A stretch of DNA of 43,027 bases from positions 1-43,027 of the IMG/VR virus record IMGVR_UViG_3300032080_000009. The stretch is one strand, 5' to 3'. Below the pieces are notes generated by a model that saw only the letters and a program-made list of their open reading frames with translations, was not told the DNA's origin and made no database searches. Of the stretch, positions 128 through 41,762 are shown in pieces. The position numbers were made by a program, and so were the translations under genes. Positions within the stretch are counted from its first letter, which is position 1. Every line of letters begins with the position of its first letter. The DNA is from a virus.

Positions 128-556
128 ATCGGGTGGCGCGAGATCATGTCGCTCGACGCTGCAGCTCGTCGAGCCGAGAGCGACCACGCTCGCGCCGCCT
201 ACGTCCCGCCCGTCGTCGAGCCGCCGCAGGTGCCGGCGCGCTCGCCGATGGGCCCGGGCGAGATCGCCGGGGCGGGCGGTCGCAAGCAGGCCACGAAGCT
301 CGGGCGGCAGGCGCTCGCGGCCGGTTGGCTCATCGAGGCGCTCTACTGGCGAGCGGCCGACGGCACCGAAGGGTGCGCGCTGCGGCTCGCTCGCGATCTC
401 GGCCTGCGCATGGTGCTCACGTGGAAGCGGCCGGCCGGACATGCCGGCGAGACGGTCGGATGGGCGTCTGACGTCGCGTACGCATGGCGCGAAGGCGTGA
501 CGCCTGCGACGAAGATCGGCCACTCAGAGGCCGAAAAGCTGCTCGAAACCTGCTAG
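2..556 (+). CDS. hypothetical protein, 3' part of a gene that starts at ATG 42896 across the circular junction
   Basis: The frame is open from base 2 and in frame with 146..556. Codon position 3 is G/C-rich. The N-terminus seen at 42896 is MNGRCGACGY...GKCH, which is Cys-rich. Confidence 0.7.
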   Translation, partial: GRCGACGYFAETHDVDGKCHPATGDKNGRRGTFRPAPGPDPDIGWREIMSLDAAARRAESDHARAAYVPPVVEPPQVPARSPMGPGEIAGAGGRKQATKLGRQALAAGWLIEALYWRAADGTEGCALRLARDLGLRMVLTWKRPAGHAGETVGWASDVAYAWREGVTPATKIGHSEAEKLLETC

Positions 557-559
557 GGT
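551..559 (+). promoter_or_regulatory. extended -10-like motif TGCTAGGGT, preceded by CTGCTCGAAAC
   Basis: Member of the CTGCTAnnnT family. The hexamer TAGGGT ends 6 nt before ATG 566. Confidence 0.4.
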
Positions 560-565
560 GGACGC

Positions 566-655
566 ATGAGAGAGATCTTCGTGAAGCTGGCAGTCGTCCT
601 GCTCGACGCCGTGCGCGCCTTCGCCGACCCGAACCGGACCGGCATCCGACAGTGA
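566..655 (+). CDS. possible 29-aa leaderless small ORF (MREIFVKLAVVLLDAVRAFADPNRTGIRQ)
   Basis: ATG sits 6 nt after the TAGGGT hexamer. The ORF is short and hydrophobic. There is no other support. Confidence 0.3.
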   Translation: MREIFVKLAVVLLDAVRAFADPNRTGIRQ

Positions 656-702
656 CCGAGCTCGTGCCGAGCGACACCGACATCGACTAGAGAGAGATCA
701 AC

Positions 703-1617
703 ATGGGAGAGACTGACAGCTTGCCGACCGCCCGGGAGTCGATGGTCCGAGCCGTCGCGGCGGCCGAGAGCGGCCGTTTCGAGCTCGCGCAGACATGGGT
801 CGCCATCGCTCGTGAGTTGCGCGAAGGCGCACGGCCGGCCGCGCCGCCGCAGATGCCCGGCAAGGCTCGGCAGGTGCCGGCCCCGCGCCCTTTCGAGCGG
901 GACGGGTCGGACGTGCAGCGGCTCGACTTCGGGCAGCGCTACGAAGACGAGCCGAAGCTCATGACGCGCCCGCACGACGACCCGAGCGCGGCCGTCATTG
1001 GCGACCCTGACAACGACGCTGACACGATGTACGGCTACACGAGGGGGCAGCAGAGACCGCCTTCGCAGACCGCCTACGCGGCGGCCGTGCGGACTCGCAA
1101 GCAGCTCGACCGGGGCGAAGGGCCCTACTCGGGCTCAGTCGTGGCCGACGTGAGCTCGCTCGTCGATGAGATCTTGACGCGAGCGCCGAAGGCTTCACAC
1201 GACGACACCGTGACGGCGATCAACGCCTTCGGGGCCGACGGTCTGCAGCGGATCGCCGACGTGCTGCACGGCCTGCCCGAGACGAGCGACGAGCGCGAGC
1301 GCCGCTTCGCGTACGCCCCGCCCGCACGCCCCTACGTCGACCCCGAGACGACCTTCGCCGGCTTCGCCCGTGGCGAGCAGGATCACACGAGGGTGCTTTC
1401 CGGCGGCCGGCCGGGCGAGTGCCGCAACTGCGGGCACGCGATCTACGAGGTGACCCCGAGCGATCTCGGCACGAGCCACCGGTTTCGGCACGAGGGCACG
1501 GGGCAGGCAATGTGCCCGACGCCGCCCCGCCATACCAACGAGGCAGGCGAAGAGACGTACGTGACGGGCCAGCATCTCTATGCCGAGCCCGGTGGCCTGC
1601 CGTACCGTGCTGAGTAG
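703..1617 (+). CDS. hypothetical protein
   Basis: 304-aa ORF with strong G/C at codon position 3. AGAGAGAG lies 6 nt upstream of the ATG. An in-frame TTG at 721 is an alternative start. Confidence 0.75.
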   Translation: MGETDSLPTARESMVRAVAAAESGRFELAQTWVAIARELREGARPAAPPQMPGKARQVPAPRPFERDGSDVQRLDFGQRYEDEPKLMTRPHDDPSAAVIGDPDNDADTMYGYTRGQQRPPSQTAYAAAVRTRKQLDRGEGPYSGSVVADVSSLVDEILTRAPKASHDDTVTAINAFGADGLQRIADVLHGLPETSDERERRFAYAPPARPYVDPETTFAGFARGEQDHTRVLSGGRPGECRNCGHAIYEVTPSDLGTSHRFRHEGTGQAMCPTPPRHTNEAGEETYVTGQHLYAEPGGLPYRAE

Positions 1618-2096: not shown

Positions 2097-2283
2097 GTTA
2101 TTTTTAACTGTGTGTAATCGCCGGAGGGTGGGAGGTGCCCCCCGGGGGTAGGGTGTCAGCGCGGCTGGGTTTAGCGCCTGCCAGCCAGTATAGAACCGGG
2201 CCCGACTTACTAGGGCGAAACGGACATCACTCTGAGTAGCGTAATTGCGGAGTGTAATCCTTACTATGTGCTAGGTTTCTGCT
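2097..2283. other. 187-bp non-coding, AT-richer gap that may hold the cos/packaging-site region
   Basis: It lies between two HNH genes, upstream of terS/terL. It contains TAAGTTATTTTTAACTG, the palindrome CCCCCGGGGG (2139-2148), and GTGTAATC direct repeats at 2112-2119 and 2252-2259. Confidence 0.3.
2269..2277 (+). promoter_or_regulatory. extended -10-like motif TGCTAGGTT (a second overlapping copy, TGCTATGCC, is at 2280-2288)
   Basis: The hexamer TAGGTT ends 6 nt before ATG 2284. The 18-mer ATGTGCTAGsTTTCTGCT recurs at 2873. Confidence 0.5.
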
Positions 2284-2919
2284 ATGCCCGAAGATCGAGA
2301 GCGCCGAAACGCTCGACAGCGTGAGTACATGCGGCAGCGTCGGGCGGCCGGCATCGCTCATCGAAAAGACGAGCTCGCTTGCCCCCGTTGCGGCACGTCG
2401 AGACCGGTTCGGCGCGACAAGTCGCCCGTCTCTTGTCGTCCCTGCCAGCGTCGAGACGCGCTCGCCGCCGCCGTACAAGTGAGTGCGGAGGCTCGGCGGC
2501 TCGATCCTGCCGAGCGCCGCCGACGACGACGCGAGCGCAAGCGCGCAGCGCGTCGACCGTCGGGTTACGCCTTCGTCGCGCTGCCGCCCGAGCTGCGAGA
2601 GCGGCGTGCCCGAGCTCGTCATGCCGATCGGAAGGCCCGACGCCGGGCCCGCCTGCGCACTGCCTTCGTCGAGACCGTGCGTCGGGCCGAAATCTTCGCT
2701 CGCGATGGGCATCGCTGCCTGCTCTGCGGTGACCTGCTCGCCATGGCCGAGACCGTTCCGCACCCGCTTGCGCCTACCATCGATCACGTGCTGCCGCTCG
2801 CTCGGGGCGGCGCTCATGCCCCGTGGAACGTGCAAGCAGCACACTTTCTGTGCAACTCGCGTAAGCGCGACAATGTGCTAGCTTTCTGCTCGGGAGAGAG
2901 GACACCGACATGCCAGTAG
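2284..2919 (+). CDS. HNH endonuclease with an Arg-rich N-terminal region
   Basis: The C-terminal motif is DGHRCLLCG...TIDHVLPLARGG...NVQAAHFLCNSRK. Confidence 0.85.
   Translation: MPEDRERRNARQREYMRQRRAAGIAHRKDELACPRCGTSRPVRRDKSPVSCRPCQRRDALAAAVQVSAEARRLDPAERRRRRRERKRAARRPSGYAFVALPPELRERRARARHADRKARRRARLRTAFVETVRRAEIFARDGHRCLLCGDLLAMAETVPHPLAPTIDHVLPLARGGAHAPWNVQAAHFLCNSRKRDNVLAFCSGERTPTCQ
2876..2884 (+). promoter_or_regulatory. extended -10-like motif TGCTAGCTT inside the 3' end of the HNH gene, upstream of terS
   Basis: Near-identical copy of the 2266 motif, followed by GGGAGAGAGG and then ATG 2910. Confidence 0.4.
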
Positions 2920-3380
2920 CAGGCGCGAAGCCGAAGGCCGACCGGTCGCAGATCAGGCACCGAGTCGAAGCCGTACACGAATGGGTCGACGTCGAGAACG
3001 TGCCGTTCACCGACGCCCCGAAGCTGCCCGAGCGCGAGAAGCAGGTCTCATGGGCCGACGCCGGCGCGGTCGGCGGCTCGTGGCCGATCTCGACGCTCGC
3101 GTGGTGGCGGGACATCTCGTCGATGCCGCACGCGAAGCTCTGGACGAAGGCCGAGTGGCGCTTCGCCATCGACACGGCCGAGATCCACGCTCGCACGATG
3201 GAAGCGTGGCGCGGGTACACCGGGGCCGAGATTCGGGCCCGCGAGAAGCTGCTCGGAATGCTCGCCGACTACCGGCGCGACCTGCGTATCCGCTACGTCG
3301 AGCCGAAGGCGGCCGAAGAGCGCTCGAAGGCGGCCGATGACGCGAACGTCGTCTCGATCACGAGCCTGCGGGCGCTCTGA
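2910..3380 (+). CDS. terS: terminase small subunit (probable)
   Basis: 156 aa, first gene of the packaging operon. The segment WWRDISSMPHAKLWTKAEWRFAIDTAEIHA and the tail LRIRYVEP look like actinophage small terminases. This rests on position and recollected similarity only. Confidence 0.6.
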   Translation: MPVAGAKPKADRSQIRHRVEAVHEWVDVENVPFTDAPKLPEREKQVSWADAGAVGGSWPISTLAWWRDISSMPHAKLWTKAEWRFAIDTAEIHARTMEAWRGYTGAEIRAREKLLGMLADYRRDLRIRYVEPKAAEERSKAADDANVVSITSLRAL

Positions 3381-3643: not shown

Positions 3644-3930
3644 CCGAGAGGCTCGGCGTCGGCGAGCTCACGATGCACTTCCGTCGCTTCGTCGACGGCA
3701 CGCCGCCTGCGCGGCAGCAGATTGAGTGCGGCGTGCGAGCGGGGTGCGTGACGGCTCGACTCGAAGACGTCACGTGCGCAGGGTGCAAGCTCGTCGCGGC
3801 CGAAGCCGACAAGCGGGCCGAGCACTGCGGCTGTCGTCGCGGCGACGTCCATCGGGGGCACGCGCGTGCAGCGATCGAGATCGCCGGCCGGCTGCCCGAA
3901 TTGCTCGATGAGCTGCGGGGGCGCTCATGA
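3640..3930 (+). CDS. hypothetical protein (Cys-containing)
   Basis: ATGA overlaps on both sides. Confidence 0.65.
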   Translation: MTERLGVGELTMHFRRFVDGTPPARQQIECGVRAGCVTARLEDVTCAGCKLVAAEADKRAEHCGCRRGDVHRGHARAAIEIAGRLPELLDELRGRS

Positions 3931-4088
3931 CCGCGCACGATTGGCGTCGCGGGCGCACGCGGCGATATCGCACGTTCGGCGGCGCGGTCGTCGACGTCGA
4001 GCTCGTTTGTCGCCGCTGCGGCACGACGAAGAGTGCGGGCGATGTCGTGCGAGAGGAATGCGAGCCGCCTGCCGAGTCGGCCGAATGA
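3927..4088 (+). CDS. hypothetical small protein (53 aa, contains CRRCG)
   Basis: ATGA overlap upstream (3927) and downstream (4085). It is absent from the ORF track because it is short. Confidence 0.5.
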   Translation: MTAHDWRRGRTRRYRTFGGAVVDVELVCRRCGTTKSAGDVVREECEPPAESAE

Positions 4089-5869
4089 CCGCCCCGACGA
4101 TCGAGCTCGACCCCGATGCCGGCGTCGAGATGCTGCCCGGCTACCGCGTCGATCCGTGGTACGGCACGACGGCATGGGTCACGCTCCCATGGCCCGAGAC
4201 GCAGGCCGAGAAAGACGCGCTCATCGAGAGCTCGCTCGGCCCGGGCGTCATCGATTGGGCGGAGGGGCGGGGCGAAGGGCCCGGGCTCGTCGACTACCAA
4301 AACGGCGGCCCTTGGACGTATACGGCCGGGCAGAAACGCTTTCTGATCCTTTGGTACGCCTACGACTCGCGCGGGCGCTTTCTCTACCGGCGCGGGGCGA
4401 AGCGCGGCGCGAAGGGCACGGGGAAAGACCCGTTCGGCGGCTCGGTCTGCCTCGCCGAGCTCGTCGGGCCGACGCAACTCGTGCTCGATGCCGACGGGTG
4501 GCACGGCGAGTCGCACGGAATGCCGCTCGTGCAGATCGCGAGCAACTCAGAGGCGCAGTCGAAAGACGTGCTGCGCGTCGCTAACGCGATGTGCTCGAAA
4601 GACTTTCGCGCGTACTACGATCTCGACTGCGGCGAGACGCGCACGATCGTCAAGGGCACGGGCGGTCGCATCGAAGTGCTCACGGCGTCGGAATCGAGCG
4701 CCGAAGGCGACCCGGCGACCTTCGTCTTTCTCAACGAGACGCACCATATGACCGAATCGAGCGGCGGTCACCGGGTCGCGAAAGTCGTGCGACGCAACGT
4801 GGGCAAGTCGCCGGCTCATCTGCAGGCGCGCACGCTCGACGGCACGAATGCGCACATGCAAGGCGGCGACTCGATCGCCGAGCGCACGTACGTCGCGTGG
4901 CAGGCGCAGGTGGCGGGCAAGGCGGCGCGGCGAGACATTCTGTACGACTCGATCGAAGCGCCGCCGACGACTGACCTGTTCAACGACGCGAGCCGGCAGG
5001 CCGGCCTTCGTGCCGCGTACGCCGATGCCCATTGGGCCGACCTTGAGCGGCTTGACGGCGAGGTGCTCGACCCCGAGACGCCGGTCGCCGACTCGATTCG
5101 GTACTACCTCAACGGGCTCGCGGCGGCCGAAGACGCATGGGTCGACCCGCGCAAGATCTCGGCGCTCGCGCGCCCGCAGGTGCGCATCGCCGACGGCGAG
5201 CAGGTCGCGATGTTTCTCGACTGCTCGAAGTCGGGCGACGTGACCGCGCTCGTCGCGTGCCGGCTCTCCGACGGCTTCGTGCAGCGGCTCGGCGCATGGG
5301 TCCCACCGCGCGGCACGGCTGGGAAGGGGTGGCTCGTCGACCGCGAGCAGGTCGACGGCGCGGTGCGCGGCGCATGGGCGAAATACAAGGTCGTATGGTT
5401 CGGCGTCGACCCGTCGCCGGCGAAGGACGACGAGACCGAGCTCAACTATTGGATGCCGCTCGCCGACGCATGGCACCGCGACTTCAGTAAGCGGCTCAAA
5501 GTGTGGGCTACCGGCGGCGCGAAAGTCGGGCACTCGGTGCTCTTCGACATGCGGATCAAGACGCTCGGCGGCGCGGCGCGTAACGCGCAATTCGTGCAAG
5601 CGGCGATGCAGACGCAGGACGATATCGACGAGACGGGCACGTTCCTATGGGATGGCGACCCCCTCATGCTCGCGCATTTCACGCAGGCGAAAGGCCGGCC
5701 GACGCCGTGGGGCCGCACGCTCGGCAAGGTGACCCGCGACTCGTCGAAGCACGTCGACCTCGCCGTTTCTGCAGTCGGGGCCCGCATGGGCAGGCGTATC
5801 GTGTTGAATAGCGGCAAGGTGCGGGCGCGGTCGGCACGAGCAGGCGGCACGGGGAAGGCGGTTTTCTAG
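4085..5869 (+). CDS. terL: terminase large subunit
   Basis: 594 aa from the internal ATG 4085, which is coupled by ATGA. It has a Walker A-like GAKGTGKD, FVFLNETHH, and a C-terminal nuclease-sized domain. It lies directly upstream of portal. Confidence 0.9.
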   Translation: MTAPTIELDPDAGVEMLPGYRVDPWYGTTAWVTLPWPETQAEKDALIESSLGPGVIDWAEGRGEGPGLVDYQNGGPWTYTAGQKRFLILWYAYDSRGRFLYRRGAKRGAKGTGKDPFGGSVCLAELVGPTQLVLDADGWHGESHGMPLVQIASNSEAQSKDVLRVANAMCSKDFRAYYDLDCGETRTIVKGTGGRIEVLTASESSAEGDPATFVFLNETHHMTESSGGHRVAKVVRRNVGKSPAHLQARTLDGTNAHMQGGDSIAERTYVAWQAQVAGKAARRDILYDSIEAPPTTDLFNDASRQAGLRAAYADAHWADLERLDGEVLDPETPVADSIRYYLNGLAAAEDAWVDPRKISALARPQVRIADGEQVAMFLDCSKSGDVTALVACRLSDGFVQRLGAWVPPRGTAGKGWLVDREQVDGAVRGAWAKYKVVWFGVDPSPAKDDETELNYWMPLADAWHRDFSKRLKVWATGGAKVGHSVLFDMRIKTLGGAARNAQFVQAAMQTQDDIDETGTFLWDGDPLMLAHFTQAKGRPTPWGRTLGKVTRDSSKHVDLAVSAVGARMGRRIVLNSGKVRARSARAGGTGKAVF

Positions 5870-7360
5870 GTGGCGATCGAGTCCCGCGGCGCGGTCGTTG
5901 CGCTCGCAAAAGAGCTGCACGCGACACATCTGCGCGAGCTCGAAGAGCTCGACGTGCTGCGGCGCTACGTGACCGGCAAGCAGGCCTTGCCGCTCGTCGT
6001 CCCCCGTGACGCGCCCCGCGAGGTGCAGGAGATGGCGCGCATTTCGCGGATCAACATCATCTCGATTGTCGTGAACGCGCTCGTCGAGAGTCTCTACGTC
6101 GACAACATGCGTGCTCTCGACGACGCACCCGCGCCCGAGCTCGACCCGGAAGATCTCGACCCCACGCAGCTCGACGAGCCGGGCGACGGCGAGCAGGTCG
6201 TCTCGCGCATCTGGGAAGTCTGGCAGCGCAACAAGCTCGACCGGGGGCAGAGTGGGCTCTACCGCGCCGTCTTCACGTACGGATGGGCGTACATGGTCGT
6301 CACGAATGGCGACCCCCTGCCCGTCGTGCGACCGGTCTCGCCGCGCAGCATCACTGCGCTCTACGACGACGACCCCGATTGGCCCGTCTTCGCGCTCGAA
6401 AAGCGGCGAAACGGCAGGTGGTCGCTCTACGACGAGACGCACGTCTACTCGCTCGGCCGCGACGAAAAGGGCGACTGGACGGTGCTCGGCGAGCGCCCGC
6501 ACGGGCTCACCTACTGCCCGGTCATCCGCTACGTCGACGCCGACGATCTCGATCTCGACAACGAGCCCGAGTTCTCGCCGGCCGCGTACGCGCGGGGCGT
6601 GCAGTCGAGCATCGTCGCCGGGCAGGTCGCGCCGCTCATGACGCTGCAGGATCAGGCTGACGTTACGACGTTCTCACTGCGGGCGGCCGAGTGGTATACG
6701 GCCTTCCGGCAGCGCTGGATCGTCGGGTGGACGCCGGAGAGCAAGGCGGCGAAAGTCGCGGCCGGCGCGTCGCAGATGTGGACCTTCGACGCCGACCCCG
6801 ACGAAGTGAAGCTCGGCGAGTTCGGCGAGACGACGCTCGAAGGCTACTTGCGCTCGCGCGACGCGACGGCTCGCTTCGCGGCGACGCTCTCGCAGACGCC
6901 CGTGCATGAACTGATCGGCGAGCTCGTGAACCTCTCGGCCGAAGCGCTCGCGGCGGCCGAAGCCGGCCGTGACCGCAAGGTCGACCTGCGCAAAACGGGC
7001 AACGGTGAGAGCCACGAGCAGACGGCCGGCGCGATCGGCGACCTGCTCGGGCTCGACGTGCCCGATGACATCGAAGTCGTCTGGCGCGACACAAGCGCCC
7101 GAGCCTTCGGTGCGATCGTCGACGGGCTCGGCAAGCTCGCGCAGATGCTCGGCGTGCCGCCCGAAGCGCTCTGGGAGCGCATTCCGGGCGCGACCCGGCA
7201 GGAGATCGCCCGGTGGAAGCAGCTCGCCGCGAAGGGCGACTCGATGGCGGCGCTTACCCGGCTGCTCGATCAGCAGGCCGGCGAGACGCCGCCGACCGGC
7301 GCGCCCGGCGAGCGCACGTCACCCGGCGGCGTCATCCTGCCGCCCGGCGTGGAAGTCTGA
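5870..7360 (+). CDS. portal protein
   Basis: 496 aa, GTG start abutting the terL stop. Size and position fit, and the N-terminus LRELEELDVLRRYVTG is portal-like. Confidence 0.88.
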   Translation: MAIESRGAVVALAKELHATHLRELEELDVLRRYVTGKQALPLVVPRDAPREVQEMARISRINIISIVVNALVESLYVDNMRALDDAPAPELDPEDLDPTQLDEPGDGEQVVSRIWEVWQRNKLDRGQSGLYRAVFTYGWAYMVVTNGDPLPVVRPVSPRSITALYDDDPDWPVFALEKRRNGRWSLYDETHVYSLGRDEKGDWTVLGERPHGLTYCPVIRYVDADDLDLDNEPEFSPAAYARGVQSSIVAGQVAPLMTLQDQADVTTFSLRAAEWYTAFRQRWIVGWTPESKAAKVAAGASQMWTFDADPDEVKLGEFGETTLEGYLRSRDATARFAATLSQTPVHELIGELVNLSAEALAAAEAGRDRKVDLRKTGNGESHEQTAGAIGDLLGLDVPDDIEVVWRDTSARAFGAIVDGLGKLAQMLGVPPEALWERIPGATRQEIARWKQLAAKGDSMAALTRLLDQQAGETPPTGAPGERTSPGGVILPPGVEV

Positions 7361-30688: not shown

Positions 30689-30994
30689 ATGACTACCGCG
30701 ACCGCGCCTGCCGAAACGTCGGCCGCGCGCTACTCCGAATCCGTACACGTGCTCGTCGACCGGCCGATGCGCGCCGTCCTGCTCGGTCTCGCCGAGCTCG
30801 AAGCCGAAGAGCGGGGCGGCCGACCCAAAGAGGGCGACACCCTGCGCGTCCTGCTCGAAGCCGAGATCGGCCGGCTCGCTCGGCGTGACCGCGCCCGCTA
30901 CGACCTCGCGCTCTCGCTCGGCCGCGCCGAGCTCGACAAGCGCGCCGCCGAGAAAGAGGCGCGCCGCACCGCACGTCGGCGACCGATCGCGTAG
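30689..30994 (+). CDS. small basic protein, possible ribbon-helix-helix-type regulator
   Basis: 101 aa. The segment SESVHVLVDRPMRAVLLGLAELE fits a strand-helix pattern. The gene is divergent from the minus-strand operon. The assignment is weak. Confidence 0.5.
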   Translation: MTTATAPAETSAARYSESVHVLVDRPMRAVLLGLAELEAEERGGRPKEGDTLRVLLEAEIGRLARRDRARYDLALSLGRAELDKRAAEKEARRTARRRPIA

Positions 30995-34412: not shown

Positions 34413-34424
34413 CAAATCGCTCAT

Positions 34425-34459
34425 AGCGCCCCCGTACGGCTTCGGCCTACGGGGGCGCT
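34425..34459 (+). terminator. GC-rich hairpin AGCGCCCCCGTA...TACGGGGGCGCT
   Basis: 12-bp perfect outer stem, 3 further base pairs, and a TTCG loop. It lies 13 nt after the stop codon. Confidence 0.65.
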
Positions 34460-34469
34460 CGCGTTGCGC

Positions 34470-34565
34470 TGCCCGGTAGTGCCCGGTAGCTGCCCGGTTG
34501 ATTGCCCGGTACCCTGCCCGGTTATTTCCGCTGGTCAGACCGCCCTTTACCCGGTTACCCGGTTA
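34470..34565 (+). repeat. left iteron array: 5 x TGCCCGGTW and 2 x ACCCGGTTA
   Basis: Copies are at 34470, 34480, 34491, 34503 and 34515 (10-12 bp spacing), and at 34549 and 34557. Confidence 0.85.
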
Positions 34566-34712
34566 CTTGTAGAGATCGCGTCTATAGAGAAGTAGAAAAT
34601 AAAGTAGAGTGTTAGGTATACCTAAGTATATTTTTCAGAGTGCCGCAGAGTGAGCCACGATTGCGCAGCGAACCGGGCAACCGGGCAGCACCCCTCCCCA
34701 CCAGCGGAAATA
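34523..34712. repeat. 13-bp perfect inverted repeat TATTTCCGCTGGT (34523-34535) / ACCAGCGGAAATA (34700-34712)
   Basis: Exact reverse complements. Their midpoint falls within 1 bp of the central palindrome. Confidence 0.85.
34612..34625. repeat. 14-bp perfect palindrome TTAGGTATACCTAA in the centre of an AT-rich stretch of about 75 bp (34567-34640)
   Basis: Read directly. The surrounding stretch is far more AT-rich than the rest of the genome. Confidence 0.85.
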
Positions 34713-34752
34713 GCCTGCTCGTACCGGGCAGCGGCTACCGGGCAACTGGGCA
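34671..34752 (-). repeat. right iteron array, in inverted orientation: WACCGGGCA x4 plus AACTGGGCA
   Basis: Copies are at 34671, 34679, 34722, 34736 and 34744. They are reverse complements of the left-arm units. Confidence 0.8.
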
Positions 34753-34765
34753 GCGAGCCGACGTC

Positions 34766-34794
34766 GGACTTTTATTACGTGTCGAAGCAAGTAT
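34766..34794. repeat. left copy of a 29-bp inverted repeat (GGACTTTTATTACGTGTCGAAGCAAGTAT)
   Basis: It matches the reverse complement of 35101-35129 at 26 of 29 positions. Confidence 0.8.
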
Positions 34795-34804
34795 GTATGG
34801 AAAG

Positions 34805-34813
34805 TTATCCACA
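34805..34813 (+). promoter_or_regulatory. perfect DnaA-box consensus TTATCCACA
   Basis: Exact 9-mer next to the iteron region. It is AT-rich, so a chance match is unlikely in this GC-rich genome. Confidence 0.45.
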
Positions 34814-34840
34814 GTCGGGCCCCCAAACCTGCTCGGTTCC

Positions 34841-34849
34841 TGCTATACT
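34841..34849 (+). promoter_or_regulatory. extended -10-like motif TGCTATACT; leaderless start at 34856
   Basis: The sequence reads CCTGCTCGGTTCCTGCTATACT-N6-ATG. Confidence 0.55.
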
Positions 34850-34855
34850 TACTGC

Positions 34856-35041
34856 ATGAGGAAATACGAACTGGTAGAGGTCGAAGCGGACGGAACCGAA
34901 GGCGGACGCGAGACGCTGGTCGCCACCGGAACCCTCCGGAAGATGACGGCGGCGCTGCAGGAGAGCATCGAAGAGGCCATCGAGGATTACGACGAGCGCG
35001 GCTACGACTGGCCGAGCTACCGGGTGCAGCCCGCGCAGTAA
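34856..35041 (+). CDS. small acidic protein (61 aa: MRKYELVEVEADGTEGGRE...)
   Basis: It has its own promoter motif and its own terminator. The longer track ORF from 34640 runs through the non-coding iteron region. Confidence 0.55.
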   Translation: MRKYELVEVEADGTEGGRETLVATGTLRKMTAALQESIEEAIEDYDERGYDWPSYRVQPAQ

Positions 35042-35069
35042 GGCCCCGGGGCCCCCGCGAGGGGCCCTT
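35040..35069 (+). terminator. GC hairpin (GGGCCCC / GGGGCCC core) followed by a T-containing tract
   Basis: Read directly from the sequence. It overlaps the stop codon of the 61-aa gene. Confidence 0.5.
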
Positions 35070-35129: not shown

Positions 35130-35158
35130 CCCTCCGACCACGCGATACGCTGCTCGGC

Positions 35159-35458
35159 ATGGGAGAGCAGACCCGCGTCACCTTCGACGCGAAGACGATC
35201 AACGATCTCGGCAAGAGTCTCGGCCGCGCCATCGCCGAGCAGCTCGCCGCGAAGCACGAGCCCGCACCCGAGCCGCCGCCGGCCGTCGACGCCCCGCTCG
35301 CCGTGCACATCGAGCCGTGGCACATCTTCGACCCCCGTAGGCAGACCATCGTCGCGGCCTACGTCGACGACGCGCAGCAGCAGCGATGGGTGCCGGTCGC
35401 CGACGAGCTCGAAGTGCCGAAGGCCTGGCGCAAGCTCTTCCGGCAGCGTGCCGCATGA
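35159..35458 (+). CDS. hypothetical protein (99 aa)
   Basis: Starts at internal ATG 35159 (MGEQTRV...). TACGCT lies 7 nt upstream, which may make it leaderless. Confidence 0.6.
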   Translation: MGEQTRVTFDAKTINDLGKSLGRAIAEQLAAKHEPAPEPPPAVDAPLAVHIEPWHIFDPRRQTIVAAYVDDAQQQRWVPVADELEVPKAWRKLFRQRAA

Positions 35459-36423: not shown

Positions 36424-36461
36424 CCGTACGGGGGTCGGCGTGCCGCGACCGAGCAGGTTTC

Positions 36462-36470
36462 TGCTATGGT
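36462..36470 (+). promoter_or_regulatory. extended -10-like motif TGCTATGGT; leaderless start at 36478
   Basis: The sequence reads GCAGGTTTCTGCTATGGT-N7-ATGACG. Confidence 0.55.
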
Positions 36471-36477
36471 TGGCGGC

Positions 36478-37230
36478 ATGACGACCCCCGTTTTGCTCGA
36501 CGTCTACTGCTGCGCGGGCGGCGCGACCGCTGGATACAAGCGCGCCTTCGAGGGCACGCCCGTCAAGGTCATCGGAATCGACAAGATGCCGCGCCCCCGT
36601 TACTGCGGCGATCACTTCGTGCAGACCGACGCGATCGCGTTCCTGCTCGACCCGGGCCGATTCTTGACCGGCATCGAGATCGTCGCCGTGCACACGAGCC
36701 CGCCGTGCCAAGCGGGCAGCACCCTGACCGTCGGTACCAATGCGTCGAAGGGCTGGGGCGGCGAGCATGAGCAACTCGTGCCGCCGACCCGCGAGCTCTG
36801 TGAGGCGCTCGGCGTGCCGTTCGTCATTGAGCAGCCGAGCAACCATGGCGGCTTGATCCGGCCCGATCTCGTGCTCTGCACGGACATGTTCCCCGAGCAG
36901 GTCGGTCCGCCCCCGTGGGTGCAGCGGCACCGCGACTTCGAGTTGCACGGCTTCGACGTCCCGCAGCCTGCGCACCCTAAGGGCCCGGTACGCGGGCACC
37001 GTGGCTACGTGCGTGGCTACCGGGGCAAGAGCGGCGACCGCCCCGGATTCTTCCGGGACGGGCCCTACGTCGCGGCGTACGGCGACGGGGGCGGTAAGGC
37101 GACGGTCGCCGAGATGCAACACGCGCTCGGCATCGATTGGACCGACGAGCGCGAAGAACTCACGGAAGCGCTGCCCACGGTCTACACGGAACACATCGGC
37201 CGCGCGCTACGGGCACATCTCGGCTTGTAG
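36478..37230 (+). CDS. DNA (cytosine-5) methyltransferase, compact (250 aa)
   Basis: Motif I is DVYCCAGGATAGY, motif IV is HTSPPCQ, and motif VIII-like is QRHRDF. Confidence 0.8.
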   Translation: MTTPVLLDVYCCAGGATAGYKRAFEGTPVKVIGIDKMPRPRYCGDHFVQTDAIAFLLDPGRFLTGIEIVAVHTSPPCQAGSTLTVGTNASKGWGGEHEQLVPPTRELCEALGVPFVIEQPSNHGGLIRPDLVLCTDMFPEQVGPPPWVQRHRDFELHGFDVPQPAHPKGPVRGHRGYVRGYRGKSGDRPGFFRDGPYVAAYGDGGGKATVAEMQHALGIDWTDEREELTEALPTVYTEHIGRALRAHLGL

Positions 37231-37244
37231 GTCTGGCAGGAACC

Positions 37245-37253
37245 TGCTATGTT
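37245..37253 (+). promoter_or_regulatory. extended -10-like motif TGCTATGTT; leaderless start at 37261
   Basis: The sequence reads GCAGGAACCTGCTATGTT-N7-ATG. Confidence 0.55.
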
Positions 37254-37260
37254 TACGGGC

Positions 37261-38820
37261 ATGGGAGAGACGACACGCAAACAGCAGCACGAGGCAGCAA
37301 TCCGGCAGCTCGCCCGGGTGATCGCGAAGGGTGCGACCCCGGGCATCGAGCTCGATCTTTTCAAGGCGTACGCCTTCGCGGCCGGCGTCATCAAGGGCGA
37401 CCGGGGCGGTTGGGTCTACCCTTTCGGACGTCAGATGTCGGCGATCAACGGCTTCCGTAAGCTCGCAGAATTCATGCTCAATCCCCCGGCCGGCTGGGGC
37501 AGCGAAGTCGAGCAGCTCGTCGAGCGCATGGGCGAAGCGCGCGCCGCTGCGCATCTCGCCGACCCCCCGCGCTCCGAGCCCGCCCCCGAGCCGCCGAAGG
37601 CCGATCCCGACTCGCTCGAAGCGCTCGTCGGCAAGCGCGTTGACATCAATTACGGCATCTCGGCCGGCCGCTCGGGTGTCGTGACCGGCGTCGACGAGCG
37701 CCCCGGAATGATCGCCGTCGACGTCGACGGCCGCTCGGTCAAGGTCGACAAGCTCAACGTGTCGATCTCGGCCGAGCCCGACTCGCCGCTCGTCGAGAGC
37801 GCGAAGCAGCTCGACGCCGCCCGGGCCGAAGCGCGCAAGCTCGACGGGTACTACGACGAGCCGTCGCAGCTTCGCCCGATGGATATCGTGCAGCTCGCCG
37901 ACGGCGCGATCGGTGTCGTCGAGCGGGTCAACATGGGCGGCGACGTGCTCGTGCGCGCCAACGACGTACGCGACGGCATCCTTTCCGTCTTCGACGTCAA
38001 CGCGCTGCGCAGCGTGCCGCCGATCGCCTACGAGTGTGCGGGCGTGCCGGGCGCTGTCTTCGGGCACAACGTGCCGCGCGAGTTCGCGACGAGCGAGCTC
38101 TCGCAGCGCGCCGTCATGCGGGCCCGCAAGGTCGCCCCCGACGCCCGACTCACGCTCACGGCGGTCAAGGTCGACAACCGTTACGAATACGGCCGCGCCT
38201 TCGTCTACGCGATCGCGAGCATCATCGACGCGACGCGCCTGCTCGCCGCCCGCTGCTCTAACGCGTACTGGCACGAGAGCGCCCCCGCTCGTCGCCTACA
38301 GCCGTGCGCGCACTGCGGCGAGCCGGTCGACGAGCAGGTGCCCGTGCGCACGTCGGCTGTCGAGATCCTGACCGATGGCACCCGCGTGCCGATCGGCAAG
38401 CCTCGCGAGACGACGATTTCGCGGGGGGCGCTCGACACGCTGATCGAGAGCGCGACCGGGCTTGTGCACGGCCTCTCCGATCTCGAAGCCCTGATCAAGC
38501 AACAGGCGGCCGAGCCCGGGCCGGCTCGGGCCACCGACCCCGCGACCGATGACGACATCGACGAGATCGTCGAGCGGCTCGTGCGGCGGGCGCAGTATCT
38601 CGCGCTGTGCAAGGTGCTCGACGAGCTCGACGGGTGGCGCGAAGGGCAGCGCAGCAATCATGACGCCAACGCCCACCGTGGCGAAGCGGCCGGCGAGCAG
38701 TGTTGGGAGCACTGGCACTCGTCAGACGTACGCACGATGGTCGCCGACGCCGCCAGTGAGTTGCGCACAGCCGATCCGAACGGCGCGCACGTGCCGAGCG
38801 ACCTTCCCGCGCCGTTGTGA
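37261..38820 (+). CDS. hypothetical protein (519 aa) with two SH3/KOW-like beta segments
   Basis: The two segments are GKRVDINYG..GVVTGVDERPGMIAVDVDGRSVKV and MDIVQLADGAIGVVERVNMGGDVLVRA. No enzymatic motif was recognised. Confidence 0.7.
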   Translation: MGETTRKQQHEAAIRQLARVIAKGATPGIELDLFKAYAFAAGVIKGDRGGWVYPFGRQMSAINGFRKLAEFMLNPPAGWGSEVEQLVERMGEARAAAHLADPPRSEPAPEPPKADPDSLEALVGKRVDINYGISAGRSGVVTGVDERPGMIAVDVDGRSVKVDKLNVSISAEPDSPLVESAKQLDAARAEARKLDGYYDEPSQLRPMDIVQLADGAIGVVERVNMGGDVLVRANDVRDGILSVFDVNALRSVPPIAYECAGVPGAVFGHNVPREFATSELSQRAVMRARKVAPDARLTLTAVKVDNRYEYGRAFVYAIASIIDATRLLAARCSNAYWHESAPARRLQPCAHCGEPVDEQVPVRTSAVEILTDGTRVPIGKPRETTISRGALDTLIESATGLVHGLSDLEALIKQQAAEPGPARATDPATDDDIDEIVERLVRRAQYLALCKVLDELDGWREGQRSNHDANAHRGEAAGEQCWEHWHSSDVRTMVADAASELRTADPNGAHVPSDLPAPL

Positions 38821-38972
38821 AGACCTGCGACTACTGCCCGCGCTACGCCGGCACGACAATCTACCTGCGTCGCTCGCCGCTGCGGATCGTGCTGCGTAAG
38901 CCGCCGAAGCGCCGCGACGTGTGCACGGATCACATTGACCGCGCCCGACGTCCCGGTGGCCGGCATGGCTGA
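38817..38972 (+). CDS. hypothetical small Cys-containing protein (51 aa)
   Basis: GTGA overlap. It has a CxxC...C..H pattern (KTCDYCP...VCTDH). It is not in the ORF track. Confidence 0.45.
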   Translation: MKTCDYCPRYAGTTIYLRRSPLRIVLRKPPKRRDVCTDHIDRARRPGGRHG

Positions 38973-39243
38973 TCCGTTCCAACTCTTCGAGCAGGCCGAC
39001 GCCGGCCGGCAAGAGTCCCTGCGCGTCATCTGGCCCGAGCTGCACGCGATGCTCGCTCGTGAAGACGAGCCGGCGTCGGAGCGTACGACCCGCTGCGCGG
39101 TCTACGCGACGCACGAGATCGGTACGCACGCGGTCGCCGTCGGCCGGCTCGTCGCGGACGGGCCCCCGGCGTGCGCCGAGTGCGTCGCGAAGGCAGCGAC
39201 CCGCGAAGGCGGGTATCCCCTCACCCGAGAGGCAAGACGATGA
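38965..39243 (+). CDS. hypothetical protein (92 aa)
   Basis: ATG 38965 lies in frame within track ORF 38935..39243. Confidence 0.55.
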   Translation: MADPFQLFEQADAGRQESLRVIWPELHAMLAREDEPASERTTRCAVYATHEIGTHAVAVGRLVADGPPACAECVAKAATREGGYPLTREARR

Positions 39244-39635
39244 ACGTCACCATCCTCCGTTTCTTCACGCTCATCGCCGACGTGCTGCTGCGTCTGCGGT
39301 ACGAGCGCGGCGAGTCGCAGGTCGCCGTCGCGGCCCGGGCCGGGCTCGCCAATCCGCAGATCTCGAAGTACGAGCGAGGCGTCGTCACGCCCGATCTGTC
39401 GACGACGCTGCAGCTCTTGCACGCCTACGGGCAGCATCTCGTCGTGATGCCGGCCCCGCTCGCCGAGACGCTCCCCGAGCGCGACGTGGTCGTCGCGGCG
39501 GCGTCGCGCTGGTATGCCATCGGCCCGTCGAGTAACCCGCACGAGCTCATCGCGGCCGTCGAGAAGCTCGTCGCGGCCGAGCTGCGGCACGGTGGCGGCG
39601 CACACGCTCGACTCGTCGAAGGCGGCGACCGATGA
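39240..39635 (+). CDS. helix-turn-helix (XRE/Cro-CI type) DNA-binding protein
   Basis: ATGA overlap. It has LRLRYERGESQVAVAARAGLANPQISKYERGVVTPDLSTTLQLLHAYG. Confidence 0.75.
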   Translation: MNVTILRFFTLIADVLLRLRYERGESQVAVAARAGLANPQISKYERGVVTPDLSTTLQLLHAYGQHLVVMPAPLAETLPERDVVVAAASRWYAIGPSSNPHELIAAVEKLVAAELRHGGGAHARLVEGGDR

Positions 39636-39967
39636 TCGAGTCCGAAGTCGCGCTCGTCGAGTGGGAAGGGCTCGTCGGCGTCGAGCTCGTGCCGGCACTG
39701 CGGGCGGGCACCGAGCGGGTGCTCGTTGGCGAGCCGTACGCGCTGCACGAACTCGTCGACGAGCTGCGCGAGCGCATCACGAAGCTCGAAGCCGCCTTCG
39801 AGCAGGTCGCGCGCTCGCGCAACGAGTGGCGGGCCCGGGCGAAGCGCGAGCCGACTGCGCGCGACGGCTTCGAGCTCTGCTCGCACCCGCGACTCGTGCC
39901 GCGCCTGCCGTGCTCGGCGTGCGCCCCGCGCTACGCCGTCGAAGCCGCTCGGCGGTCGAAGCCGTGA
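39632..39967 (+). CDS. hypothetical protein (111 aa)
   Basis: ATGA overlap. It has a coiled segment. Confidence 0.6.
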   Translation: MIESEVALVEWEGLVGVELVPALRAGTERVLVGEPYALHELVDELRERITKLEAAFEQVARSRNEWRARAKREPTARDGFELCSHPRLVPRLPCSACAPRYAVEAARRSKP

Positions 39968-40131
39968 AGCGTGACCACCGAGCGGCCGTCGTCGAGCGGG
40001 CGCGGCGCTCGGGCGGTCGCGTCATGCCTGCGAATTGGCGGGAGCGACGCGCGCTGCGGCGCATGAGCGCCTACGGTGCCGCTCGCCCCGCTCTCGGCTA
40101 TCCGGACATCTGGGAGATTCCGTGCGTTTGA
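39964..40131 (+). CDS. hypothetical small basic protein (55 aa)
   Basis: GTGA overlap at 39964. Confidence 0.45.
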   Translation: MKRDHRAAVVERARRSGGRVMPANWRERRALRRMSAYGAARPALGYPDIWEIPCV

Positions 40132-41735
40132 GGCCCTATCAGCAAGAGCTCATCGACGGCATGATGCGCGAGTGGAAGGCCGGGCACCGCCGCATCGCCG
40201 CTGTGATGGCGACCGGCGGCGGCAAGACGCCGACGGCGATCACTGTCGCCGAGATGTCGCTCGCTCGCGGCCGGCCGGTGTTGTGGATCGCGCACCGCAC
40301 CGAGCTCATCGATCAGGCGATCGATAAAGCGCAGCAGGTCGCGCCCGGCCGGCGCATCGGCAGGATGCAAGGTCGCGTCAAGCAGTACCGGGCCGAGCTC
40401 GTCGTCGCGTCGATCCAAACGGCGTCGACGCAGGGCTCTATCGCGATGCTCAAGTCGCGCATCTGGGGTCTGATCATCATCGACGAGACGCATCACGTTG
40501 TCGCCGACACGTACGTGCGCCTGCTGCGCGAGCTCGGCGCGTACGAGCCCGACGGACCGCTCGTGCTCGGCGTGACCGCGACGCTCGACCGCAGCGACGG
40601 CCGGGCGCTCGGGGCGGTCTTCGAGTCGGTCGTGAGCCCGCAGATCGGCTTGATCGATCTGATCCGAGCGCCCGCGCCCGGGCCCTACCTCGTGCCGCCC
40701 CGGGGAGTGCGGGTGCGCATCGCCGAGCTCGATCTCGACCGCGTGAAGCGCACGGCCGGCGACTACAACTCGGGCGCTCTCGGGGCGGCGATGTCGGCCG
40801 CCATGGCACCGAAGCGGATCGTCGAAGCGTGGCAAGAGCACGCGCTCGGCCGGCCGACGGTCGCGTTCCTGCCGTCGGTCGCGCTCTCGATCGAGCAGGC
40901 GCAGACGTTCAACGACCACGGCATCGCCGCCGTGCATCTCGACGGCACGACGCCGGCCGCCGATCGGGCCGACGCGCTCGACCGGTTCCGGCGCGGCGAG
41001 CTCACGGTGCTCTGTAACGTCGGCCTGTTCACCGAAGGGACCGACCTGCCGAGCATCGCGTGCGTCGTGCTCGGGCGGCCGACGTCGAGCGGCTCGCTCT
41101 ATCAGCAGATGGTCGGCCGTGGCCTACGACTGCACCCGGGCAAGCGCGATTGCGTCGTGCTCGACGTCACGGGCGTCACGGGCCGGCACAAGCTGGCCAC
41201 GCTCGCTTCGCTCGGCGGTGCGGACGGGCCCGAAGACATGCCCGACGAGCTGCTGCTCTACGAAGTCGACGATGACAAGCTGCTCGCCGAATCGGTCGAA
41301 GACGAGACAAATAACGTGGCCATCGACGAGGAGCCGTCCGTGTACGCCGACGGCGATCTCGCGCACGAGCTCGTCGATCTCTTCGGACAGTCGCACTCGT
41401 CATGGCTGCGCACGCCCGGCGGTCGATGGTTCGTCCCCGCAGGCTCGGCCGGCTTCGTGTTCCTCGTGCCCGCCATGAGTGGCGAGACCGAGAGGTATGA
41501 CGTGCGGTGGACAACGGTCGAACGCGGTCACGAGGGGCTCATACAGGCCGACATGGAGATCGGCTATGCGATGGCGGCCGGCGATGAGTTCGTCGCGTCG
41601 CGGCCGATCTGGCAGGCCGAGCGCGATGCGCCGTGGCGCGCCGAGAAGGTGCGCGGCGGCCGTACGCGCGGCGAGATCGCCGACGCGAAGATGATCACCC
41701 GCGCCGCCGCGCTCTTCGACCCGCGCCCGCTGTAG
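40122..41735 (+). CDS. SF2 DEAD/DEAH-box helicase
   Basis: GTG 40122. It has LRPYQQELI, Walker A MATGGGKT, the DExH motif IIDETHH, VTATLDR and a QQMVGRGLR arginine finger. Confidence 0.85.
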   Translation: MRLRPYQQELIDGMMREWKAGHRRIAAVMATGGGKTPTAITVAEMSLARGRPVLWIAHRTELIDQAIDKAQQVAPGRRIGRMQGRVKQYRAELVVASIQTASTQGSIAMLKSRIWGLIIIDETHHVVADTYVRLLRELGAYEPDGPLVLGVTATLDRSDGRALGAVFESVVSPQIGLIDLIRAPAPGPYLVPPRGVRVRIAELDLDRVKRTAGDYNSGALGAAMSAAMAPKRIVEAWQEHALGRPTVAFLPSVALSIEQAQTFNDHGIAAVHLDGTTPAADRADALDRFRRGELTVLCNVGLFTEGTDLPSIACVVLGRPTSSGSLYQQMVGRGLRLHPGKRDCVVLDVTGVTGRHKLATLASLGGADGPEDMPDELLLYEVDDDKLLAESVEDETNNVAIDEEPSVYADGDLAHELVDLFGQSHSSWLRTPGGRWFVPAGSAGFVFLVPAMSGETERYDVRWTTVERGHEGLIQADMEIGYAMAAGDEFVASRPIWQAERDAPWRAEKVRGGRTRGEIADAKMITRAAALFDPRPL

Positions 41736-41753
41736 ACACACCTGCTCGATACC

Positions 41754-41762
41754 TGCTATCTT
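41754..41762 (+). promoter_or_regulatory. extended -10-like motif TGCTATCTT (CCTGCTCGATACCTGCTATCTT)
   Basis: Family member. The downstream gene has a leader of about 30 nt. Confidence 0.45.

Follow-up and report, generated by a model that had tools for sequence, protein, structure and literature searches.

Near-identical extended -10 elements, mostly with leaderless geometry, and paired 9-bp boxes at the predicted promoters of an uncultivated actinobacteriophage

The stretch of DNA analyzed in this work, called the window throughout, is the 43,027-nucleotide IMG/VR virus record IMGVR_UViG_3300032080_000009, and the element in question is a short motif, TGCTANNNT (TGCTAnnnT), that recurs at its gene boundaries. 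The window has a G+C content of 69%. Positions 1-127 and 42901-43027 are the same letter for letter and, since the first 127 nt are repeated as the last 127 nt, the record is taken as a complete, circularly permuted genome of about 42.9 kb. As predicted from its sequence, the source is an uncultivated siphovirus-like phage of an actinobacterium. The initial annotation of this DNA had located ten TGCTAnnnT sites and interpreted them as a phage-wide set of leaderless promoters. Each of the ten was found again in the same position and on the same strand, and they are listed here together with a possible eleventh promoter. In the list, extended -10 designates the predicted promoter element, box the 9-bp sequences treated below, hexamer the last six positions of TGCTAnnnT, and leaderless ATG a start codon predicted to lie at the 5′-end of the mRNA.

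538-568, plus strand: site 1, with upstream box GCTGCTCGA (538-546), downstream box CCTGCTAGG (549-557) and extended -10 TGCTAGGGT (551-559); the leaderless ATG at 566 opens a 29-aa open reading frame (ORF; 566-655), which is followed by the gene 703-1617.
2254-2286, plus strand: site 2, with extended -10 TGCTAGGTT (2269-2277) and a second copy, CTGCTA, downstream (2279-2284); the leaderless ATG at 2284 belongs to an HNH endonuclease gene (2284-2919).
2861-2912, plus strand: site 3, of the late or structural operon, with extended -10 TGCTAGCTT (2876-2884) and CTGCTCG downstream (2886-2892); the small terminase ATG at 2910 has a Shine-Dalgarno (SD) sequence, GGGAGAGAGGA, and lies 25 nt from the hexamer.
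27191-27339, minus strand: site 4, with an upstream box of the inverted type, CCTGGCAGG (27331-27339), forming the palindrome GCAGGTACCTGC, downstream box CCTGCTAGG (27320-27328) and extended -10 (27318-27326); the ATG at 27193 has an SD and lies 124 nt from the hexamer.
30604-30635, minus strand: site 5, leftward arm of a divergent control region, with an upstream box of the direct type, CCTGCTCGG (30627-30635), and extended -10 TGCTATGGT (30614-30622); the leaderless ATG at 30606 opens a gene for a 310-aa product.
30672-30691, plus strand: site 6, rightward arm of the divergent control region, with extended -10 TGCTATGTT (30674-30682) and leaderless ATG at 30689.
34828-34858, plus strand: site 7, with upstream box CCTGCTCGG (34828-34836), extended -10 TGCTATACT (34841-34849) and leaderless ATG at 34856 (61-aa ORF).
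36449-36480, plus strand: site 8, with upstream box CCGAGCAGG (36449-36457), which is the box of sites 5 and 7 in exact reverse complement, extended -10 TGCTATGGT (36462-36470) and the leaderless ATG of a DNA methyltransferase gene at 36478.
37232-37263, plus strand: site 9, with upstream box TCTGGCAGG (37232-37240), palindrome GCAGGAACCTGC, extended -10 TGCTATGTT (37245-37253) and leaderless ATG at 37261 (519 aa).
41733-41801, plus strand: site 10, with the -35 hexamer TAGACA (41733-41738), upstream box CCTGCTCGA (41741-41749) and extended -10 TGCTATCTT (41754-41762); the ATG of a membrane protein gene at 41799 lies 36 nt from the hexamer.
35143-35161, plus strand: possible eleventh leaderless promoter, lacking the TGC, with TACGCT, 7 nt and an ATG at 35159 (99 aa; third-codon-position GC content, GC3, 0.91); CTGCTCGG overlaps the interval from the -10 to the start codon.

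The motif is enriched in the window and confined to gene boundaries. TGCTANNNT occurs ten times against 2.78 ± 1.62 in dinucleotide shuffles (maximum seven; none of 100 shuffles reached ten), CTGCTANNNT gave eight matches where 1.0 was expected, and 10 of the 11 matches to TGNTANNNT (TGnTAnnnT) have a C at the N, a constraint that goes further than sigma recognition. When hexanucleotides were ranked by their abundance in non-coding versus coding DNA, with no reference to the motif, ATAGCA came first (7 vs. 0) and CTGCTA second (10 vs. 3). Non-coding DNA makes up 5.5% of the window according to our gene map, and eight of the ten sites lie wholly within it. At the remaining two, the TAG of the site at 551 doubles as the stop codon of the upstream gene, and the site at 2876 falls within the last 44 nt of the HNH gene, just ahead of the small terminase gene. 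All ten sites are at gene boundaries and are oriented toward the downstream gene. The initial annotation had held that an equal frequency inside genes would speak against promoters; no motif site was found deep within any gene, and a 24-kb stretch (2885-27317) has none at all. A generic promoter scan in the E. coli style picked up the site at 41754 alone.

In its genes, listed here, the window is like a siphovirus-like actinophage.

2284-2919, plus strand: HNH endonuclease gene.
2910-3380: small terminase, TerS.
3866-5869: large terminase, TerL.
5870-7360: portal.
Further structural and lysis genes: protease, scaffold, major capsid, head-tail adaptor, tape measure and endolysin.
About 25339-30606: leftward block, which includes an exonuclease gene.
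31096-33846: primase-polymerase/D5 helicase, in the rightward block, which also encodes a DNA methyltransferase, one helix-turn-helix (HTH) protein and a DEAD-box helicase.

Among the window ORFs scanned, no integrase, partition gene, sigma factor or RNA polymerase was detected, and tRNA and Rfam scans of the window gave zero matches. Searches for relatives showed that the phage has no close isolates: a megablast of 20 kb against 50,697 phage records returned only a segment of TerL (72% identical), and protein searches reached identities of at most 37%, with best matches that were all actinobacteriophages. No prophage relative was found when the primase-polymerase was used as the query against 185,579 species genomes. 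The same query recovered five IMG/VR contigs (55-63% identity), the TerL query 36 further related contigs and the helicase query 19 metagenome contigs, and homologues of the gene at 30689 led to both closer and remoter genomes. A metagenome scan queried with gene 146-556 gave zero matches. The closest relatives, contigs L042 and L043, form a subclade with the window.

The motif recurs in every related phage contig examined, in a cleaner form, for example TTGACGgaCCTAGCAGGtaCCTGCTAGGTT followed by 6-7 nt and an ATG. The clade set used below consists of 165 non-redundant sites from about 40 related metagenomic phage contigs, all of them TGCTAnnnT by selection; 150 of these were scored for ATG spacing, and 87 non-redundant sites were aligned on the -10 for a consensus. 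In nine related contigs (L013-L016, L019-L021, L024 and L026) a promoter directly upstream of TerS, about 110 nt from the contig end, is syntenic with the site at 2876. This synteny indicates that the structural operon of about 22 kb, which has no internal copies of the motif, is probably driven by the same type of promoter.

The initial annotation had placed an ATG 6 or 7 nt past the hexamer at seven sites, and this spacing was exact in all of them (566, 2284, 30606 on the minus strand, 30689, 34856, 36478 and 37261). Among the 150 clade sites the ATG was found at 6 nt in 40 cases and at 7 nt in 25, never at 5 or 8 nt, and mostly 0-4 times at any other distance. None of the seven window genes with this geometry has an SD-like motif, and most other window genes have an SD. 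In the relatives, sites without the 6-7 nt geometry have a strong SD and a start codon 25-36 nt downstream. The description of the sites as a phage-wide leaderless set consequently needs narrowing, as seven of the ten have the leaderless geometry and the other three (2876, 41754 and 27318 on the minus strand) are leadered. The reading of the sites as promoters with leaderless starts gained support from the same 6-7 nt geometry in all related contigs examined, from the SD dichotomy and from the placement at gene boundaries, and on these grounds we consider it very probable.

The sequence of the motif points to the type of polymerase. In Mycobacterium smegmatis promoters, ANNNT occurs between -6 and -13 with a preference for TANNNT, about a quarter of the transcripts are leaderless, and an ATG or GTG at the 5′-end is enough for translation (PMC6448022). 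In the clade consensus, the A, the T and the final T of the hexamer are the invariant positions. A hexamer resembling the -35 (at least four of six matches to TTGACA, with 16-19 nt of spacer) is present at 39% of the clade sites and 9% of the controls, the preferred spacers being 18 and 17 nt; at the same threshold of matches it is present at only three of the ten window sites. Extended -10 promoters do not need a -35. By these features, the ten sites are predicted to be phage promoters for the host housekeeping RNA polymerase, of the SigA type, with TGcTAnnnT as an extended -10.

The same letters could instead act in translation, the AGG of TAGGnT serving as a weak SD 8-9 nt before the ATG, and in the relatives TAGGGT and TAGGTT are indeed frequent hexamers, with a spacing that would suit an SD. 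However, the invariant T, A and final T are a -10 signature, the middle bases are free, and the window hexamers TATACT, TATGTT and TATCTT have no AGG. In addition, the genuine SDs of this genome are long runs of the GGGAGAGAGGA type, and the leadered sites put the motif 25-124 nt from the start codon. This explanation is essentially refuted by the sequence data.

A further claim of the initial annotation was that several start codons have to be moved from the longest-ORF calls to the leaderless ATGs. These revisions are plausible. In the subclade of the window, the hexamer TATGnT itself holds an ATG, in frame when the spacing is 7 nt, and the longest-ORF and database calls start there or farther upstream; the L042 genes, for instance, are called from the in-hexamer ATG. 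The larger clade lacks this ATG because its hexamer is TAGnnT, and in the L043 orthologue of the gene at 37261 the leaderless ATG is the only possible start. For the gene at 30689, whose family has 45 representatives, nearly all aligned members begin at the position of the ATG at 30689, as MT.., and the database call for the window product (129 aa) is over-extended through the gene's own promoter, by 28 codons. Standard gene callers would thus systematically mis-start leaderless genes in these phages. A genome-wide search for TAnnnT, 6 or 7 nt and an ATG or GTG opening an ORF gave twelve hits. Seven are motif sites, and one further convincing hit is that at 35159, TACGCT-N7-ATGGGAGAG (99 aa), where the arrangement suggests that the TTG start called at 35105 is wrong.

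Some additional features were observed around the leaderless starts. Between 35042 and 35161, a GC-rich hairpin (about 35042-35068) is followed by a conserved AT-rich element, TTTGATACGTTTCAATTATACTTGTATCGACAAGTAATAAAAG, and then by TACGCT-N7-ATG at 35159; the AT-rich element is also present in L043 and L079, and it holds the sole TGnTAnnnT of the window in which n is other than C. Leaderless genes open unusually often with ATGGGAGAG (MGE; 11 of 65 sites) or ATGACTACC (MTT; 7 of 65). Such starts were seen at 703, 35159 and 37261 in the window and at many sites in L002-L005, L042, L043, L078 and L088, and GGGAGAG is also the core of the SD of this genome. The recurrent MGE and MTT starts may be a downstream enhancer of leaderless translation or reflect a shared cassette ancestry. 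In L002 (13628-13740) and L003 (13172-13250), motif promoters are followed by conserved leaders of 70-100 nt (..gtcggtcgttccg..) before the first ORF, which may be a structured 5′ untranslated region or a small RNA.

The promoters carry a second conserved component. The consensus of the 87 sites aligned on the -10 reads A-n-A-CCT-[A/G][G/C][C/T]-AGG-T-A-C-C-TGCTAGg-n-T, and the clade-wide consensus is TTGnCA-N2-CCT(GCT/AGC)AGG-TA-CCTGCTAGGnT. The promoter is thereby described as two 9-bp boxes, CCT(GCT/AGC)AGG, 11 bp apart. The box is pseudo-symmetric, as its outer CCT...AGG is palindromic and the central triplet alone flips. In the clade, the proximal box is always CCTGCTAGG, in the TGCTAG orientation, and the extended -10 is part of it. 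The distal box takes up the spacer and can face either way. Distal 9-mers that agree with the box in at least seven of nine positions were found at 110 of the 165 clade sites, compared with 1.8% of random control positions. These 110 distal boxes comprise 63 direct and 47 inverted ones, with an offset of 11 bp at 93 sites and 12 bp at 17. In the subclade of the window, L042 and L043, the distal box takes one of three forms, namely CCTGCTCGG, the exact reverse complement of this sequence, CCGAGCAGG, and ..GCAGG, and the proximal box ends in TAT and not in TAG.

It had been proposed from the window alone that each site is preceded by a second CTGCT(C/A)G copy or by GCAGG. An upstream 9-mer of this kind is present at seven of the ten sites, exactly 11 bp upstream in all of them: it is of the CCTGCTCGG type at 551, 30614 (minus strand), 34841 and 41754, and of the ..GCAGG type at 27318 (minus strand), 36462 and 37245. 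The sites at 2269 and 2876 have instead a downstream copy, at 11 nt, and that at 30674 has no recognizable one in the subclade of the window. A block of about 28 nt said to be common to 30614 (minus strand) and 36462 proved to be real. The orientation of the distal box changes between relatives. In equivalent positions, the window has CCTGCTCGG at 34841 and L043 has its exact reverse complement, CCGAGCAGG, at 14272; at the leftward control promoter, CCTGCTCGG in the window corresponds to CCTCGCAGG, of the inverted type, in L043. Reverse-complement boxes in equivalent positions indicate that the function does not depend on box orientation. The divergent control region (30604-30691) has back-to-back leaderless promoters, an architecture kept in eight of eight aligned genomes, and in L004 it has three boxes common to the two promoters, with 45 bp between the divergent ATGs.

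We also asked where else the perfect 18-bp palindrome, CTAGCAGGNNCCTGCTAG, is found. In 596 Gb of genomes (about 185,000), a search made with the perfect form, degenerate forms not being searched, gave 14 single hits in unrelated taxa and never more than one per genome. In 2.9 million IMG/VR viral contigs the perfect palindrome is confined to this phage clade. As it is never repeated in host genomes and is confined to the clade, it appears to be specific to the phages and not the motif of a host regulon. The suggestion that a phage or host regulator binds at these sites is accordingly divided: a host regulator is unlikely with a palindrome confined to the clade, and a phage regulator is supported, as an inference from the conserved and strictly phased box. 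It is, in our estimate, reasonably probable that the boxes bind a protein.

The competing view is that these are promoters and nothing else, and that the spacer and the second box reflect common descent or the copying of one strong cassette, maybe tuned to the host RNA polymerase, with no regulator involved. Early and late units all use one motif, as they would with a generic strong promoter, three window sites presumably work without an upstream box, and no DNA-binding protein could be tied to the motif. Moreover, a promoter was clearly duplicated along with the HNH gene. A 30-nt direct repeat of 80% identity (2254-2283 on the left and 2861-2890 on the right, with the core ATGTGCTAG[G/C]TTTCTGCT) brackets this gene, which is present in few relatives and has an atypical GC content by codon position (GC3 0.68); the HNH gene looks like an inserted cassette that duplicated the TerS promoter. 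A minus-strand gene at 2227-2844, hinted at by the GC3 frame plot, was rejected, as the plus-strand ORF has the HNH domain. On the other hand, the phase of 11-12 bp is held in two opposite orientations (63 and 47 sites), and copying would keep one of them, and the contacts of RNA polymerase are not orientation-blind. The boxes persist in phages whose proteins have diverged to about 30% identity, and the flanking intergenic DNA does not. Furthermore, the distal box is not simply a second promoter because it usually lacks the final T of the -10 (hexamer TAGGTA). We regard promoters without a regulator as the less probable account, although the strongest of the alternatives.

The palindromes raised the question of a role in RNA, that is, a terminator or attenuator hairpin acting against read-through, as in a promoter-coupled terminator. 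Sites of the inverted type fold stably (-16.5 kcal/mol for a site of a relative, -13.6 for 27318 on the minus strand and -14.1 for 36462), the sites are located between transcription units, and a coupling of promoter and terminator has been described (bioRxiv 10.64898/2026.08.19.745784). Nevertheless, the direct-type majority (63 vs. 47) cannot fold, with values of -2.3 and -4.5 kcal/mol that are no better than those of shuffles. No U-tract follows and the consensus has no T-tract, separate GC-rich hairpins are already present upstream of some sites (for example, at about 34426-34458 and 35042-35068), and the divergent control region has no upstream transcript to terminate. A hairpin function is very improbable.

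If the boxes are an operator, the best candidate for the protein that binds them is encoded next to the divergent control region.

30689-30994, plus strand: gene of the candidate regulator (101 aa), which opens the rightward operon and precedes the primase-polymerase gene.

The gene is conserved in all five primary relatives and in every relative examined. Its family has 45 representatives at 50% clustering, and its remotest members (29-35% identity) are encoded at the equivalent position too, in phages that carry the same motif. An AlphaFold 2 model of the product, gp30689, built on a deep alignment had a predicted local distance difference test (pLDDT) score of 90.7 and consists of an extended strand, helices at residues 25-42 and 48-66 and a long C-terminal helix; the first model, from a shallow alignment, had a pLDDT of 68.8 and gave meaningless Foldseek hits. 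The predicted topology suggests a resemblance to a ribbon-helix-helix (RHH) subunit. Three of the five top Foldseek hits in the PDB are RHH DNA binders, namely, a ParD antitoxin domain (template modelling score, TM, 0.71), Reg576 (TM 0.68) and SegB-DNA, none of them significant. The HTH protein encoded at 39171-39635 was rejected as the regulator, since it has no homologue in L001-L005, and two other conserved small proteins (29414-29677 and 38935-39243) had no PDB sequence match. The assignment of the box-binding role to gp30689 is a tentative one, suggested by position, conservation and the structure model, and it is likelier to fail than to hold.

Taken together, the data are best accommodated, with some confidence, by host SigA promoters that are mostly leaderless and carry an operator for a phage-encoded regulator. 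According to this model, at seven sites the host RNA polymerase with SigA would start transcription at the A of the ATG and produce an mRNA without a leader and without an SD, and at the three others, including the promoter of the structural operon, a leader with an SD would follow. The pair of boxes, located on one face of the helix and tolerant of inversion, would be the operator for a small, symmetric, oligomeric phage DNA-binding protein, with gp30689 as the best candidate. Since the -10 is itself the proximal box, a protein bound there would shut out sigma and act as a repressor; with the -10 occluded, joint repression or autoregulation of all phage transcription units would be the most likely outcome.

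Several observations weigh against this proposal. The same motif precedes early and late operons, so it cannot alone explain temporal control, and a global repressor is unusual for a phage without integrase or lysogeny genes. Three window sites (2269, 2876 and 30674) have no upstream box, and CTGCTCG by itself is frequent inside genes (99 copies). With respect to gp30689, Foldseek gave no significant hit (best E value in the PDB, 1.2; none in BFVD), an hhalign comparison of the family with a hand-made Arc/Mnt/CopG/omega profile gave no signal, and the family (12 and 47 members for Pfam) had no Pfam, PHROG or PDB sequence or profile match. No covariation was seen between the box sequence and the residues of the gp30689 strand, and L005 has the Ser18 of the window type together with standard boxes. 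Finally, gp30689 goes together with the motif no more closely than any other core gene of the clade.

The position of the distal box also allows for the opposite sign of control, in which the boxes bind a phage activator or specificity factor, acting in a manner similar to sigma appropriation, that licenses the host polymerase at promoters mostly without a good -35. The few window sites with at least four of six -35 matches (three of ten), the location of the distal box in the spacer, centred near -24, where factors of the MerR or appropriation type act, and the fact that the candidate gene is the first one transcribed rightward would all fit. Against this, the proximal box overlaps the -10, so that a bound protein would compete with sigma, and the promoter of the factor's own gene would need to be active before the factor exists. 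In addition, the fourfold enrichment of -35-like hexamers in the relatives makes their sites look like complete promoters, and actinobacterial extended -10 promoters need no -35 (PMC6448022). An activator is therefore unlikely, and repression through the proximal box is the preferred sign of control. The fullest version of the model, in which one small phage protein, gp30689, reads a 9-bp box identical with the extended -10 and gates the whole lytic program, early and late, is improbable as it stands. If true, the promoters of the entire genome would be locked or licensed together, in a phage that has no lysogeny functions, with one stretch of DNA acting as sigma element and operator and a partner box in helical phase that works either way round.

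The window has other features that are recorded here. An ORF starting at 42869 runs in frame across the junction into 146-556 to give a product of about 195 aa with a Cys-rich N-terminus (CGACG...GKCH), and it is kept in all relatives. The TerL homologues of the 36 related contigs align only from residue ~41-89 on, and the GTG start at 3866 overlaps the preceding ORF and has probably been called too far upstream. A 901-aa ORF (10237-12942), located between the capsid and head-tail adaptor genes, has an unusual GC content by codon position (lowest at position 1); it matches only PHROG 14065, of unknown function, and has no Pfam match. Two ORFs overlap at 24978-25568, one on the minus strand that spans the whole interval and one on the plus strand (24999-25265; 88 aa) with TACGAT-N6-ATG ahead of it; GC content by codon position is in favor of the plus-strand ORF, and the leftward block probably starts at about 25339. 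Two minus-strand ORFs, 25773-26471 and 26255-27193, share about 217 nt in different frames, and homologues of both are present in all relatives; either the downstream gene has been called from a wrong start or this is a frameshift or overlapping-gene arrangement.

Two non-coding regions stand out. Downstream of the primase-helicase operon, there are about 430 bp (34413-34840) in which (T)GCCCGGT(A/T) is repeated directly at least seven times (34468-34565). A strongly AT-rich central part with the palindrome TAGGTATACCTA (about 34570-34640) comes next, and then the reverse complement, ACCGGGCA, in four to five copies (about 34672-34750); ACCGGG is among the top 6-mers enriched in non-coding DNA. 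The layout resembles that of a replication origin, with iteron arrays flanking an unwinding element. The other region, of about 660 bp (1618-2283), has no convincing coding frame and includes a perfect 19-bp inverted repeat (1687-1705/1727-1745) and an AT-rich patch near 2085-2105. The starting point of many related contigs is about 110 nt ahead of the TerS promoter, which indicates that the physical genome end (cos or pac) is probably near 2160-2170.

A literature search with the motif strings returned only unrelated primer matches, and no paper describing the motif was found. Neither the motif nor the phage clade nor the protein family has been described; promoters of this type and leaderless expression are themselves textbook actinobacterial biology. 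From sequence alone, the sites yield a promoter map, open to testing, that covers a whole clade of uncultivated soil actinophages, and the conserved 30-bp module can serve as a specific metagenome probe for this clade. The near-identical cassettes might be junctions for the exchange of gene cassettes, as with the HNH gene flanked by duplicated promoters. If the boxes are an operator, a -10 and a box that are the same DNA, with a partner box free in orientation, would be of use as a part in actinobacterial synthetic biology and as a model of how one factor could control every promoter of a phage.

Among known systems, the closest match to the promoters themselves are the mapped SigA leaderless promoters of M. 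smegmatis and M. tuberculosis. They share TAnnnT with a TG two bases upstream, a hexamer that ends 6-7 nt before the presumed start, a 5′ ATG without SD, and a -35 that is variable or absent (PMC6448022). Unlike the host promoter sets, the phage genome uses one near-identical promoter throughout, in which C is invariant at -13, CC stands at -17/-16 and the spacer holds a second conserved box, none of which is seen in the host sets.

The stoperators of Cluster A phages (L5, Bxb1 and TipsytheTRex) are similar in that many copies of a phage-specific site, oriented with transcription, are distributed across an actinobacteriophage genome (PMC9283540, PMC6550527). However, they are single asymmetric sites of 13-14 bp bound by a monomeric two-domain repressor of a temperate phage (PMC9283540, PMC6550527), and they block elongation and mostly are not promoters, whereas the paired boxes described here are confined to promoters. 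Homologues of an integrase, partition or immunity repressor gene were not detected in the ORFs scanned, and the sole HTH protein is not conserved. The system is not a member of the stoperator family. The Streptomyces phage phiC31 has conserved inverted repeats (CIRs) at its early promoters that are bound by its repressor, and the likeness lies in a near-identical family of actinophage promoters with a conserved dyad at many sites. In phiC31, which is temperate, the early promoters are not known to be SigA-like and the CIR is a separate 17-bp palindrome that is not fused to the -10; the sequences are unrelated to those of the window. Promoter-coupled terminators also have a palindrome just upstream of, or overlapping, promoter elements between adjacent units, with the stem-loop supplying the -35 and a T-tract preceding the -10 (bioRxiv 10.64898/2026.08.19.745784). 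Here, in contrast, it is the right arm of the palindrome that forms the -10, a T-tract is lacking, and direct repeats, which cannot fold, account for more than half of the sites.

The paired boxes themselves are most reminiscent of RHH operators. The omega protein of pSM19035, an RHH protein, binds as a dimer of dimers to 7-bp boxes, direct or inverted, that overlap promoters (PMC9499535). Binding of this sort is what the arrangement of the phage boxes would call for. As in omega operators, short pseudo-symmetric boxes in either orientation, bound cooperatively in the case of omega, lie over promoters, including that of the regulator or, here, of its candidate (PMC9499535). The differences are that the boxes of the phage are 9 bp long at 11-bp spacing and not contiguous 7-bp heptads, that one box is the extended -10, and that the sites are spread over about ten phage promoters; the RHH fold of the candidate is only suggested, with no sequence homology to omega, Arc or CopG. 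The Arc and Mnt operators of phage P22 lie within the Pant promoter, an arrangement similar to that of omega. Short boxes in either orientation, about one helical turn apart and overlapping a promoter, are what characterizes operators of the RHH type, and this anatomy is found at the phage promoters, which in this respect resemble the RHH operator systems.

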